In this document: positions 26,023 to 27,892 of the stretch, one piece after another
How positions within the stretch are numbered: the first letter of the stretch is position 1
Layout: each line of letters begins with the position of its first letter
Sequence record: PQ400057.1
DNA from: a phage
Length of the DNA: 32,592 nucleotides
Reading direction: 5' to 3' (one strand)
The notes under the pieces: model-generated
What the model was told of the DNA's origin: nothing
The model's database searches: none
The model's input: only the letters and a program-made list of their open reading frames with translations
Position numbers and translations under genes: made by a program

Positions 26023-26478
26023 TTATCCACGGTCAGAAGTGACCAGTTCGTTCTTCTCCCACCAACGCTTAAGGTCGAACGATGGGCAAGCCTTAGGTGC
26101 CACATCGTGATGTGCGCGAAGAACAGCGCCTTCGTACTTAGCCAGAAGTGTGACAAGCAGTGAGCGGAGGGATTGCATTTGGGCTGGCGTAAAGTTAGCG
26201 TCGAACTTGCCTTTATCGTCGATACCGCCTACAAGGCAGACACCAATAGAGTTGTGGTTGTAACCCTTAGCGTGAGAGCCTACAGCCATCTCATCTCGGC
26301 CTTCCTCCACAGTACCATCGCGCTTGATGATAAAGTGATATCCCACATCGAGCCAACCTTGCTCTTTGTGCCACTGGCGAATCTCACGGACACCAACATT
26401 CTGACTCGGCTTGGTAGCAGAGCAGTGAACAAAGATTGCGTCGGTAGATTCACGTTGTTTAAACTGTACACGAGCCAT
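26023..26478 (-). CDS. 3.5: lysozyme (N-acetylmuramoyl-L-alanine amidase; in T7 also an inhibitor of the phage RNAP)
   Basis: The 151-aa ORF MARVQFKQRESTDAIFVHCSATKPSQNVGVREIRQWHKEQGW... matches T7 gp3.5. Confidence 0.95.
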   Translation of the reverse strand: MARVQFKQRESTDAIFVHCSATKPSQNVGVREIRQWHKEQGWLDVGYHFIIKRDGTVEEGRDEMAVGSHAKGYNHNSIGVCLVGGIDDKGKFDANFTPAQMQSLRSLLVTLLAKYEGAVLRAHHDVAPKACPSFDLKRWWEKNELVTSDRG

Positions 26479-26933
26479 TATTTCTTTCCTCCCTTCGATT
26501 GTTTCAGCTTGTCAAATGGCACCTCCTTTTTGGGTTCTTTGAGCCATTCTACAGGAATTAATTTGTCAGCAAACAGAATACCATGCTTCTCACACCATTC
26601 ACCGTAACTGGTCGGAGACCCTTTGTACAGCTTGGTGCGCGAGCTTGAGAACACCAGTCGGATGTCCAGTTCAGGAAACTGTTCGCGAATCAATAAGTGT
26701 TTCTTTCGGTCGTCACTCTCCCATAAACCTTTGGTTTCAATAAAGATTCCGTTAGGCAGCAGGAAGTCTGGAGTATACACATGGTTGCTCGCAGGGACAA
26801 CGTAAGGGATTTTCCACAGTTCATAGTCGAACTTAATTCCCTTACCCTCTAGCTGCTTAGAGACCTTATCTTCTAGGCCGGAACGGAATGTCCCGACCTT
26901 TCTGATACCACGCGCAGCGTATGCGCCAGCCAC
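26478..26933 (-). CDS. 3: endonuclease I (Holliday junction resolvase)
   Basis: The 151-aa ORF MAGAYAARGIRKVGTFRSGLEDKVSKQLEGKGIKFDYE... matches T7 gp3. It overlaps 3.5 by TAATG. Confidence 0.95.
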   Translation of the reverse strand: MAGAYAARGIRKVGTFRSGLEDKVSKQLEGKGIKFDYELWKIPYVVPASNHVYTPDFLLPNGIFIETKGLWESDDRKKHLLIREQFPELDIRLVFSSSRTKLYKGSPTSYGEWCEKHGILFADKLIPVEWLKEPKKEVPFDKLKQSKGGKK

Positions 26934-27632
26934 TTAGAAGTCTCCGTCTGAGTCTTCTTCGTAAGAGCCTTCGTCGTCTTCGTCCCAGCTTTCTTCGTCG
27001 CGTGGTTTGCTCGCTTTGGCAGAACCAGAGGCAACATAGCCGTTCTCTTCAACTTCGTCAGCCCAATCGTCTTCACCACCACCAAAGGTAGCCAGTTCGA
27101 CCAGCATTACGGATTCCAGTTGCAGCTTAACGCTCGCACCTACAGCAGTGTTCCACTTGTACGGAACCAGAGAGTATTTGACTTTCAGTTTAGAGCCACC
27201 ACCGATAATCGGAACGTCTTCCATCTTCTTACCTTTGGAGTCAACCACAACAAGATTGATGTGCTTGGTCTCTTTGGTCTTCTTGTCTTGGAAAGACGCG
27301 TAGCATTTGAACTTAAAGGTAGTCGTACCGTCACCGTTATCGAAGAACGGCATGTCACCTTCATACGGTTTCAGCGGTTTCTTACCACGAGCTACCGCAG
27401 GCGGGTTCGCTTCGTATTCCTCAACGGCAGCAGCATAAGCCTCTTCGTGACACTTCACGATTTCATCGACCATGCGTTGGCAGCGCGGGTCTTTGTTGGG
27501 AATAGTCAGGTCAACTTTGTAGACACCGCGAGGGTTCCCAAAGCCACGCTCTTCGTTACCGTAGTCAGGCTTAGAGATGTAAGCGTAAGGTTCAGCAGTG
27601 CCCAGCGCAGAGGTGAAAATCTTCTTAGCCAT
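26934..27632 (-). CDS. 2.5: single-stranded DNA-binding protein
   Basis: The internal ATG at 27632 gives MAKKIFTSALGTAEPYAYISKPDYGNEERGFGNPRG..., with an acidic C-terminal tail ending DGDF, matching T7 gp2.5 (232 aa). Confidence 0.95.
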   Translation of the reverse strand: MAKKIFTSALGTAEPYAYISKPDYGNEERGFGNPRGVYKVDLTIPNKDPRCQRMVDEIVKCHEEAYAAAVEEYEANPPAVARGKKPLKPYEGDMPFFDNGDGTTTFKFKCYASFQDKKTKETKHINLVVVDSKGKKMEDVPIIGGGSKLKVKYSLVPYKWNTAVGASVKLQLESVMLVELATFGGGEDDWADEVEENGYVASGSAKASKPRDEESWDEDDEGSYEEDSDGDF

Positions 27633-27677
27633 AATATTAATCTCCTTTAGGTTTCGTTTGTTTCTCAAAGGGAGTCT

Positions 27678-27700
27678 TCTCCCAATAGTGAGTCGTATTA
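27678..27700 (-). promoter_or_regulatory. phage RNAP promoter phi2.5
   Basis: The reverse complement is TAATACGACTCACTATTGGGAGA (-1 is T instead of A), overlapping the end of gene 2 and upstream of gene 2.5. Confidence 0.8.
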
Positions 27701-27892
27701 CTTCGGTGCTACACAAGGGCGCACACGAGTAACCTCAAAGCCAGCCGGAACGTACTGCCATTCGGCTAACTCCACAGCTTCGTCTAGGGTCTCCGCGTAG
27801 ATTGGAACCTCAAAGGAATGCTCGGAGGACTCTACGGTAGCCCAAAACTTCTTATTGTCCACACTAAGTGAACCAGTATTTACGTCTGACAT
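27698..27892 (-). CDS. 2: host RNA polymerase inhibitor
   Basis: The internal ATG at 27892 gives [64 protein letters not shown] (64 aa), matching T7 gp2. Confidence 0.9.

Follow-up and report, generated by a model that had tools for sequence, protein, structure and literature searches.

A T7-like phage genome record without an RNA polymerase gene retains standard gp2 and gp3.5 and a T7-type promoter set

The part of the phage record PQ400057.1 described here carries genes 2, 2.5, 3 and 3.5 of a T7-like phage together with the flanking promoters phi2.5 and phi3.8 (Table 1), a gene order shared with T7, as are the lengths of gp2 and gp3.5. When compared with their T7 counterparts (PDB 1LBA and 1ARO; 2WNM and 4LK0), each of these two proteins shows two conservative or polymorphic substitutions. 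T7 differs in carrying gene 1, the product of which is the regulatory target of gp3.5, whereas PQ400057.1 is devoid of this gene.

The gp3.5 protein differs from T7 lysozyme only by A59E and E125D, and matches PDB 1ARO_L with E=3e-102 and Pfam Amidase_2 (PF01510) with 67 bits against a cut-off of 26. Its RNA polymerase (RNAP) contacts were judged by a published residue range, the RNAP-interaction region being given as residues 2–52 in a passage of PMC5445346 that cites the 1ARO structure. Both substitutions fall outside this region and residues 1–58 are 100% identical to T7, and the protein consequently passes the check on RNAP-contact residues proposed in the preliminary description, appearing from its sequence to have the interaction region of the T7 lysozyme family. 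Since it equals T7 at every position other than 59 and 125, the zinc ligands and catalytic residues of this family that Cheng et al. are said to have listed in 1994 (His17, His122, Cys130, Tyr46 and Lys128, mature numbering) are all present. Wild teseptimaviruses have the identical gp3.5 protein, which was found on at least 10 RNAP-encoding contigs (38–40 kb, RNAP of 883 aa). Gp3.5 would act as an amidase endolysin and would also bind and damp a phage RNA polymerase.

The differences between gp2 and T7 Gp2 are N3D and L40V, both at polymorphic positions, V40 being a common polymorphism and position 3 being variable among relatives. The match to PDB 2WNM/4LK0 has E=5e-39, and that to Pfam RNA_pol_inhib (PF16857) covers residues 14–60 and reaches 95.6 bits (cut-off, 27). 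Consistent with membership of the Gp2 family, Arg56 and Arg58 are present, both of which are reportedly needed for binding to the beta' jaw (a finding attributed to Camara et al., 2010). Gp2 would be expected to bind and shut off the host RNA polymerase, as in T7. Both proteins had initially been regarded as intact and conserved, and the identities listed in Table 1 bear this out.

The whole stretch of DNA analysed (32,592 nt, hereafter the window) represents, in circularly permuted form, a T7-like (Teseptimavirus) genome of approximately 32.6 kb that lies on the minus strand. Its nucleotide identity of 90–94% over 84–98% of the late and middle regions (versus T7, Yanou and the Bas phages), along with its gene order, places it with the T7 group of the Autographiviridae (Teseptimavirus). 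From gp1.3 onward, most of the T7 proteins tested with tblastn are present in T7 order, the majority aligning over approximately their full length at 66–100% identity; gp1.4, gp3.8 and gp5.3 gave no match in the window, gp2.8 and gp7.7 match only the remnant of an HNH gene, and gp17 aligns over its N-terminal 296 residues only. The two ends of the window are adjacent codons of gene 19, with exactly 1 base missing at the wrap-around. The terminal repeat is complete relative to that of T7/Bas104 except for the final T, and the T7 end sequence was also used in placing it. That the record could be a prophage or a plasmid-mislabelled phage contig was considered and dropped, as complete E. coli genomes gave no match and plasmids only an irrelevant one.

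Table 1. Features located in PQ400057.1 (positions in the window)
Feature	Position	Strand	Remarks
Gene 19 (large terminase), codons 109–586	31156..32592	-	99% identical to T7 gp19
Gene 19, codons 1–107 and 2 nt of codon 108	1..323	-	1 base absent at wrap-around
phiOR promoter	31052..31074	-	consensus; downstream of gene 19
Terminal repeat, 145 nt (one collapsed copy)	30363..30507	-	placed by alignment with Bas104 concatemer-junction region
Deletion junction	30362..30363	-	repeat end joined to HNH codon 19; 1-nt (C) microhomology
5'-truncated HNH homing-endonuclease gene, 119 codons left	30004..30363	-	Pfam HNH_3
Gene 1.3, DNA ligase, 339 aa	28988..30007	-	79% identical to T7 ligase, full length
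phi1.5 promoter	28928..28950	-	first T7 promoter past left end
phi1.6 promoter	28811..28833	-	
Gene 2, E. coli RNA polymerase inhibitor, 64 aa	27698..27892	-	62/64 identical to T7 Gp2 (PDB 2WNM/4LK0)
phi2.5 promoter	27678..27700	-	TAATACGACTCACTATTGGGAGA; gene 2 stops at its TAA
Gene 2.5, ssDNA-binding protein, 232 aa	26934..27632	-	97.8% identical to T7 gp2.5, full length
Gene 3, endonuclease I	26478..26933	-	85.9% identical to T7 gp3, residues 2–149
Gene 3.5, T7 lysozyme (N-acetylmuramoyl-L-alanine amidase and T7 RNAP inhibitor), 151 aa	26023..26478	-	149/151 identical to T7 gp3.5
phi3.8 promoter	25999..26021	-	TAATTGAACTCACTAAAGGGAGA; identical to T7 phi3.8
phi4c promoter	24819..24841	-	
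phi4.3 promoter	24189..24211	-	
phi4.7 promoter	23615..23637	-	identical to T7 phi4.7
phi6.5 promoter	19349..19371	-	consensus 23-mer
phi9 promoter	16417..16439	-	consensus
phi10 promoter	15378..15400	-	consensus
Tphi terminator, between genes 10 and 11	14072..14119	-	CTAGCATAACCCCTTGGGGCCTCTAAACGGGTCTTGAGGGGTTTTTTG; top hairpin and T-run of scan
phi13 promoter	11000..11022	-	consensus
phi17 promoter	3673..3695	-	consensus

The early region is missing from this genome. Searches of the window with T7 gp0.3, 0.4, 0.5, 0.6, 0.7, 1, 1.1 and 1.2 (tblastn, E<=1e-3) gave no match, and no unassigned ORF in the window is long enough for an RNA polymerase. The single-subunit RNA polymerase that is the hallmark of the Autographiviridae and of Teseptimavirus is therefore absent, as had been noted at the outset. 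Relative to Bas104, approximately 6.5 kb is lacking as one block, bounded by the final base of the terminal repeat on one side and by codon 19 of the HNH gene on the other. With it went the early host promoters A1–A3, phiOL and phi1.3, the primary origin together with phi1.1A/B, gene 1, and genes 0.3–0.7, 1.1 and 1.2. Cutting of the window was rejected as the cause: its ends adjoin in gene 19 and the gap is internal, between the repeat and the HNH gene.

The relatives differ from PQ400057.1 in precisely this respect. Escherichia phage AnnaIndermaur_Bas104, phage 13a, Cedecea phage Yanou and the metagenomic contigs L005–L014 are 90–94% identical to it at the nucleotide level and collinear from the HNH or ligase gene to gene 19, yet in all of these the stretch from terminal repeat to HNH codon 19 is approximately 6.5 kb longer and includes the 883-aa RNAP. 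Four relatives in which this HNH gene likewise precedes the ligase gene (L001, L007, L008 and L010) all begin aligning exactly 54 nt into the HNH gene. A near-identical wild-type parent was not found, the closest ligases being 88% (IMG/VR) and 87% (metagenomes) identical.

What is left of the HNH gene has lost its first 18 codons, its RBS and phi1.3, but is 97.8% identical in nucleotides to the Bas104 HNH gene, with no stops and a dN/dS of 0.12–0.30, indicating that there has been no time for decay since the loss. The ligase gene behind it is left with no upstream promoter, there being none between the left end and phi1.5. As the sequences joined at the junction share only 1 nt, there is no repeat of k-mer length that could have misled a graph assembler, and repeat-mediated misassembly was rejected; so was promoter-to-promoter recombination (phiOL x phi1.3), because the junction lies at the repeat end and inside the HNH ORF.

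The junction recurs in none of the collections searched. Its 25-mer matched no viral, genome or metagenome contig (three collections), and no second copy was found in IMG/VR, GTDB genomes, JGI metagenomes, 153 billion gene positions or 5.8 billion proteins. When the ORF spanning the junction was used as a homology query, all of the database homologues were intact 137-aa HNH proteins, and exact look-up of the junction ORF, ligase and gp17 sequences gave no record.

T7-type promoters were sought as 23-bp sequences covering positions -17 to +6, bearing the T7 specificity bases (CGACTCACTA) and preceding the same genes as they do in T7. Exactly 13 were found, all on the minus strand and each at its T7 position, against a chance expectation of 0; these are the 17 promoters of T7 minus phiOL, phi1.1A, phi1.1B and phi1.3, and their sequences have T7 rather than T3 specificity. 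The terminator region reads exactly as the T7 Tphi sequence. Sigma-70-like sites are not enriched (33 found versus approximately 36 expected from shuffled sequence), and the first 1.57 kb at the leading end holds neither a T7 nor a sigma-70-like promoter (0 sites versus 3.3 expected), the +1 of phi1.5 and the start of the terminal repeat being 1,574 nt apart. The class II/III promoters and Tphi would together form a set of T7 type. The earlier statements that 13 promoters and Tphi are retained and that the genome has not switched to host transcription both hold, and the sequence supports a genome that is apparently still wired for a T7-type polymerase and dependent on one.

The preliminary description went further in proposing that the genome is adapted to a polymerase supplied from elsewhere. 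Of this proposal, dependence on a T7-type polymerase is supported but adaptation is not, the alleles being standard ones and the loss single and recent. That gp2, gp3.5, the 13 promoters and Tphi are all retained is no sign of adaptation: it follows from the recency of the loss and from the other roles of these genes. Gp3.5 doubles as an amidase endolysin (PMC2680503) and would therefore be kept whatever the polymerase status.

No compensating change was found in the leading-end promoters, the gp16 residues or the frequency of host-type promoters. Without a gp16 mutation, T7 DNA depends on transcription for entry past approximately 850 bp (PMC8954989), and the gp16 positions concerned (G737, I754 and E761) are wild type here. 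As the first 1.57 kb is also promoterless, a severe handicap is predicted for the genome even when polymerase is provided in trans.

An established lineage adapted to a helper-supplied T7-type polymerase, i.e., a satellite-like or defective-interfering T7 in which the retained elements are under selection, is in our estimation improbable. Such a lineage would agree with the intactness of all polymerase-dependent elements and their T7 specificity, with the preserved packaging and replication cis elements (cf. PMC13236587), and with the RNAPs of wild relatives, the possible helpers, being 98–100% identical to T7 RNAP. Nothing, however, distinguishes the genome from its RNAP-encoding relatives, gp3.5 being the same allele and gp2 varying at polymorphic sites; neither a new leading-end promoter nor a gp16 entry mutation has been acquired, the ligase gene is promoterless, the HNH gene is half-deleted yet undecayed, and with a junction that is a singleton there is no lineage to speak of.

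The explanation to which we tentatively lean is that PQ400057.1 represents a real but defective one-off deletion genome, for which polymerase would be needed in trans. We infer the existence of such a molecule, as well as how it may have formed and been propagated: approximately 6.5 kb would have been lost in one step, plausibly when a terminase-made end at the repeat boundary was illegitimately joined to a broken or resected end in the HNH gene. The terminal repeat, phiOR region and promoter-origins are present, and all cis elements and class II/III genes on which a T7-type polymerase acts are kept, so expression, replication and packaging would occur only where such a polymerase is supplied in trans, either by a co-infecting teseptimavirus or by a host expressing T7 RNAP. 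This is in line with the finding that T7 replicates, packages and transduces DNA bearing a T7 origin, pac site and terminal repeat (PMC13236587). A deletion genome also fits a junction that is no repeat-mediated misjoin and through which the sequence is continuous, with no break and no Ns, and a recent loss fits both the HNH remnant and the approximately full-length T7 homologues. Set against this are the left breakpoint, which lies <=1 nt from the physical genome end, as would also be expected had contig or read ends been joined artificially, the 1-base closure error in gene 19, which indicates that the sequence ends were processed imprecisely, the handicap predicted for the promoterless leading end, and the lack of a second copy of the junction.

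An assembly or curation artefact is almost as likely as a defective deletion genome. In this case the phage would be a normal RNAP-encoding teseptimavirus of approximately 39 kb with its early region dropped, and the absence would belong to the record; this may have come about by circularizing a partial contig that stopped at the physical right end of the genome or by following chimeric terminus reads, and the true sequence would run from the terminal repeat into ...GTCCCTATCTGTTAC... The coincidence of the breakpoint with the repeat end to within 1 nt, the closure error at the window ends and the uniqueness of the junction all argue for this, as does the predicted non-viability of a genome without RNAP, leading-end promoter or primary origin. 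Among permuted T7-like contigs in IMG/VR, RNAP lies 1.7–4.9 kb after gene 19 in 39/40, and it is found upstream of the ligase gene in all informative metagenome contigs. However, given a junction repeat of <=1 nt, a de Bruijn assembler would need reads containing the junction, wild-type reads would carry the graph past the repeat into the normal left end, and elsewhere the sequence quality is high, none of approximately 40 genes being frameshifted.

A laboratory or industrial derivative, that is a wild T7-like phage propagated or engineered on a T7 RNAP host (DE3-type) and having lost its early region as dispensable, is about as improbable as a helper-adapted lineage. The T7 specificity of the promoters would suit it, and T7 genetics has shown the deleted genes other than gene 1 to be non-essential in permissive B-type hosts. 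A T7 delta-gene-1 mutant exists in the laboratory, where it is grown on a complementing host. More generally, T7 deprived of an essential gene can be grown on a host that provides the missing product, as with T7-deltaDNAP (PMC13236587) and with delta-16 and delta-3.5 mutants complemented for gp16 and gp3.5 (PMC2680503); like PQ400057.1, these lack an essential trans-acting function, keep the cis elements and are expressed only where the product is supplied. Their deletions are precise and spare the left-end promoters, whereas in PQ400057.1 the entry promoters and primary origin are gone and a neighbouring gene is truncated. Its breakpoints look undesigned, with a cut inside an ORF, the removal of phiOL and of A1–A3 (needed for DNA entry) and no T7 promoter in the first 1.57 kb. 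Vector and marker sequences are absent, the backbone is 90–94% identical to any known phage and is therefore not that of laboratory T7, and complete E. coli genomes and plasmids hold no match, the irrelevant one apart.

A precedent for a deletion genome of this kind is Enterobacter phage E-3 (NC_028795.1/KP791806, Teetrevirus, 31,522 bp), likewise recorded as a complete genome without RNAP and early genes, in which the terminal repeat comes after gene 19 and a 5'-truncated class II gene lies approximately 1.1 kb further on, and in which gp2 and the amidase are retained. In contrast with PQ400057.1, E-3 is T3-like with T3-type promoters, and its deletion begins after phiOL, so that a phage promoter stays at its leading end, and ends in the ligase gene at residue 62 with no microhomology. 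In E-2, a sibling of E-3, only genes 0.3–0.7 are missing. The E-3 record can also be read in favour of an artefact, since an RNAP-less "complete genome" in RefSeq from a plaque-isolated phage is hard to explain except by an incomplete record or a helper. The literature search returned nothing relevant on natural RNAP-less T7-like phages, T7 defective interfering particles or the missing polymerase of E-3.

With defective interfering genomes and phage satellites, PQ400057.1 has in common that an essential trans-acting gene for replication or expression is absent while the packaging and replication signals are kept. It differs from them in encoding the full virion and replication machinery, and no helper, interference, lineage or satellite-specific genes are seen; a recurring lineage is likewise not indicated by a singleton junction. 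That it is a natural, circulating "cheater" derivative which has discarded the whole early region together with the polymerase gene and spreads by exploiting the near-identical polymerases of co-infecting teseptimaviruses seems unlikely. Were this the case, it would be a DNA-phage counterpart of defective interfering genomes, with E-3 as a second, independent example.

The reading first proposed would, if true, have meant a T7-like lineage with an outsourced polymerase, which is unusual for a family named after self-transcription. The analysis shows instead that the retained regulators are standard alleles and that the loss is a single fresh event, with no signal of outsourcing. Neither PQ400057.1 nor the E-3 RefSeq record should be counted as a complete autonomous genome in studies of taxonomy or gene content. 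If the junction is real, PQ400057.1 would be a candidate for studying how large deletions arise from terminase-cut ends, and would offer a way of testing whether polymerase-less T7-like genomes can hitch-hike on their relatives.

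In the window, all long ORFs are on the minus strand. Counterparts of most T7 proteins tested from gp1.3 through gp19.5 are present, arranged as in T7 and 66–100% identical, and most of them align almost end to end. Its closest relatives in the databases are wild Teseptimaviruses (Cedecea phage Yanou, the Bas102/Bas104 phages, phage 13a and T7), which share 90–94% nucleotide identity with it, and none exceeds 95%, which argues that this is a new T7-group phage and excludes laboratory T7. By nucleotide identity it is a Teseptimavirus, yet it lacks the self-encoded RNA polymerase (RNAP) that is the hallmark of Autographiviridae. 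The window is a closed circle, and joining its end to its start restores gene 19 minus exactly one base of codon 108; the circle was therefore closed or cut one base short.

Coordinates of features in the window
Feature	Position	Strand	Remarks
Gene 19 (large terminase), codons 1–107	323..3	-	
Gene 19, codons 109–586	32592..31159	-	stop at 31156
ORF following gp17	1403–2008	-	201 aa; Caudo_TAP domain
gp17 (tail fibre)	1944–3620	-	
gp15/gp16	3693–7667	-	80% and 66% identical to T7
Tphi	14072–14119	-	
phi4.7	23615–23637	-	exact T7 phi4.7 sequence
phi4.3	24189–24211	-	C at -17
gp3.5	26023–26478	-	149/151 residues as T7 lysozyme (A59E, E125D); PDB 1ARO_L, E=3e-102; Pfam Amidase_2
phi2.5	27678–27700	-	TAATACGACTCACTATTGGGAGA
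gp2	27698–27892	-	62/64 residues as T7 Gp2 (N3D, L40V); PDB 2WNM/4LK0; Pfam RNA_pol_inhib
gp1.7	28006–28545	-	179 aa (196 aa in T7); DUF3310, nucleotide kinase
Ligase gene	28988–30007	-	intact, 339 aa
HNH homing-endonuclease gene remnant	down to 30004	-	directly abuts repeat, no left-end sequence between
Terminal repeat	30507–30363	-	145 nt

Several genes depart from T7. Only the first 296 residues of the tail fibre match T7 (91%), its C-terminal receptor-binding part being unrelated, and it is followed by an ORF of the lambda Tfa tail-fibre assembly type that is absent in T7; together these look like a swapped host-range module. The identity of the ejection-protein genes gp15 and gp16, set against 89–99% for neighbouring genes, points to mosaic replacement. 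The N-terminal 20 residues of gp1.7 differ from T7, gp1.8 is only 44% identical to its T7 counterpart, and tblastn found no match anywhere in the window for T7 genes 3.8 and 5.3. T7 gp2.8 and gp7.7 match nothing but the truncated HNH gene located at 1.2/1.3 (about 38–39% identity); the site of such genes varies among relatives, as in Bas104, where one lies inside gene 5.

The absence of the phage RNAP was borne out: T7 gp1 has no tblastn match in the window, and neither have gp0.3, 0.4, 0.5, 0.6, 0.7, 1.1 and 1.2. From the gene 19 stop, the minus strand runs through phiOR, gene 19.5, the terminal repeat and the interior of the HNH gene into the ligase gene; the HNH stop and the ligase start overlap. 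Escherichia phage AnnaIndermaur_Bas104, an RNAP-encoding relative, and three metagenomic relatives carry the same HNH gene, flanked by gene 1.2 and the ligase gene, and the alignment of all four to the window starts exactly 54 nt into it. On its repeat side, the junction lacks the last base of the repeat as it stands in T7/Bas104 ('...TTGTCCC' versus '...GTGTCCCT|ATCTGTTAC'), and the two sides have nothing more than a single C in common. Compared with Bas104, 6,551 bp are gone in one block comprising the A1–A3 region, phiOL, genes 0.3–0.7, gene 1, the phi1.1A/B origin region, 1.1, 1.2, phi1.3 and HNH codons 1–18. Neither stops nor frameshifts interrupt the HNH remnant, which shares 97.8% identity with its intact Bas104 counterpart; as dN/dS is 0.12–0.30, its divergence from four intact homologues accumulated while the gene was still working. 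The loss of the early region is, on this sequence evidence, recent.

The two retained regulators are, as had been described, intact and conserved, and all sequence criteria examined place both in their T7 families. The identical gp3.5 protein (T7 lysozyme) occurs in 141 indexed blocks from public assemblies, and all ten of the contigs examined that carry it are 38.5–40.4 kb long with an 883-aa RNAP upstream. In gp2, the host RNAP inhibitor, V40 is shared by 12 out of 27 relatives that encode an RNAP, and position 3, in the unstructured N-terminus, varies among them (N/T/I). The RNAP-interaction region of T7 lysozyme comprises residues 2–52 (PMC5445346); since the window matches T7 at every residue up to 58, the proposed check of contact residues is passed, if trivially. 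Furthermore, gp3.5 would be kept regardless of the polymerase because it is also an amidase endolysin (PMC2680503). Retention of these genes thus says nothing for adaptation, given the ordinary alleles, the trivial contact check, the endolysin role and the recent loss, and is in itself ordinary.

The reported 13 promoters were recovered by scanning with the T7 23-mer, allowing up to 6 mismatches (12 sites), and adding phi4.7 by its exact sequence. All lie on the coding strand at T7 positions (phi1.5, 1.6, 2.5, 3.8, 4c, 4.3, 4.7, 6.5, 9, 10, 13, 17 and OR), and with the terminator, which reads exactly as T7 Tphi, the set is that of T7, its 17 promoters being reduced by phiOL, 1.1A, 1.1B and 1.3. 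Apart from phi2.5 (T7 version ...TATTAGGGAAG), whose TAA doubles as the gene 2 stop codon, and phi4.3, the promoters compared are identical to their T7 counterparts.

The preliminary description held that the genome is adapted to an externally supplied T7-type polymerase rather than switched to host transcription. The latter part stands, the window showing no sign of such a switch (33 sigma-70-like sites against about 36 expected from shuffles), while adaptation finds no support, the alleles being ordinary, the loss recent and compensation absent. Read from the left end, the sequence has no T7 promoter before phi1.5, which starts 1,574 nt in, and the leading 1.6 kb contains no sigma-70-like site (3.3 expected). 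After about 850 bp, T7 DNA becomes clamped unless transcription draws it in or gp16 has the change G737D, I754T or E761K (PMC8954989); gp16 of the window, only 66% identical to T7 overall, has G, I and E there. The ligase gene is left without a promoter, all those serving it in T7 (A1–A3, phi1.1A/B, phi1.3) being lost, and its only possible source of transcription is read-through that starts at phiOR and crosses the repeat. Compensation was thus found neither as a leading-end promoter, nor in the gp16 entry residues, nor as a ligase promoter. As it stands, the sequence cannot start an infection alone and, even given polymerase in trans, would probably be handicapped. An adapted helper-dependent lineage, for which there is no positive evidence, is very unlikely, and a derivative grown on a T7-RNAP-expressing host, equally devoid of positive evidence, is about as unlikely.

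This architecture is rare. Among permuted T7-like IMG/VR contigs extending at least 6 kb past gene 19, the RNAP lies 1.7–4.9 kb downstream in 39 of 40; it lies 0.6–1.3 kb upstream of the ligase gene in some 70 ligase-anchored loci and is present on every informative JGI/ENA metagenome contig. The sole exception is Enterobacter phage E-3 (NC_028795, 31,522 bp), which RefSeq lists as a 'complete genome' and which serves as a species exemplar; in it (locus L077, 8900–10100) gene 19, the terminal repeat and phiOL lead straight into ligase residue 62. Like the window, E-3 is a T7-like genome without RNA polymerase or early genes that keeps gp2 and the amidase. The E-3 junction has no microhomology. 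Its sibling E-2 (36,051 bp) lacks genes 0.3–0.7 only, and E-4 is 39.1 kb long. The window also resembles laboratory gene-deletion mutants of T7. Its junction 25-mer is absent from three collections, and an exact look-up of the junction ORF across 153 billion gene positions gave no match; nor does the junction have a homologue in a set of 5.8 billion proteins, every relative being an intact 137-aa HNH protein.

Very probably, then, the window is an ordinary T7-like genome from which a single block was freshly lost, which makes the retained regulators uninformative. Among the candidate causes of the loss, a real defective deletion genome has somewhat less than an even chance: the junction is crossed cleanly and holds no repeat able to mislead an assembler, every cis element needed to replicate and package it in trans is present (PMC13236587), and, judging by E-2 and E-3, deletions of this kind occur in T7-like stocks. 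In vivo, terminase generates DNA ends at the repeat boundary, and these provide a substrate for illegitimate joining. The same clean, repeat-free junction counts against an assembly or closure artefact, to which we nevertheless assign an only slightly smaller likelihood, as the breakpoint falls at the physical end of the genome, closure left gene 19 with a 1-nt error, a non-viable product is predicted and the junction recurs in none of the collections searched. The sole wider interest lies in the unproven possibility that polymerase-less T7-like genomes may circulate as hitch-hikers.
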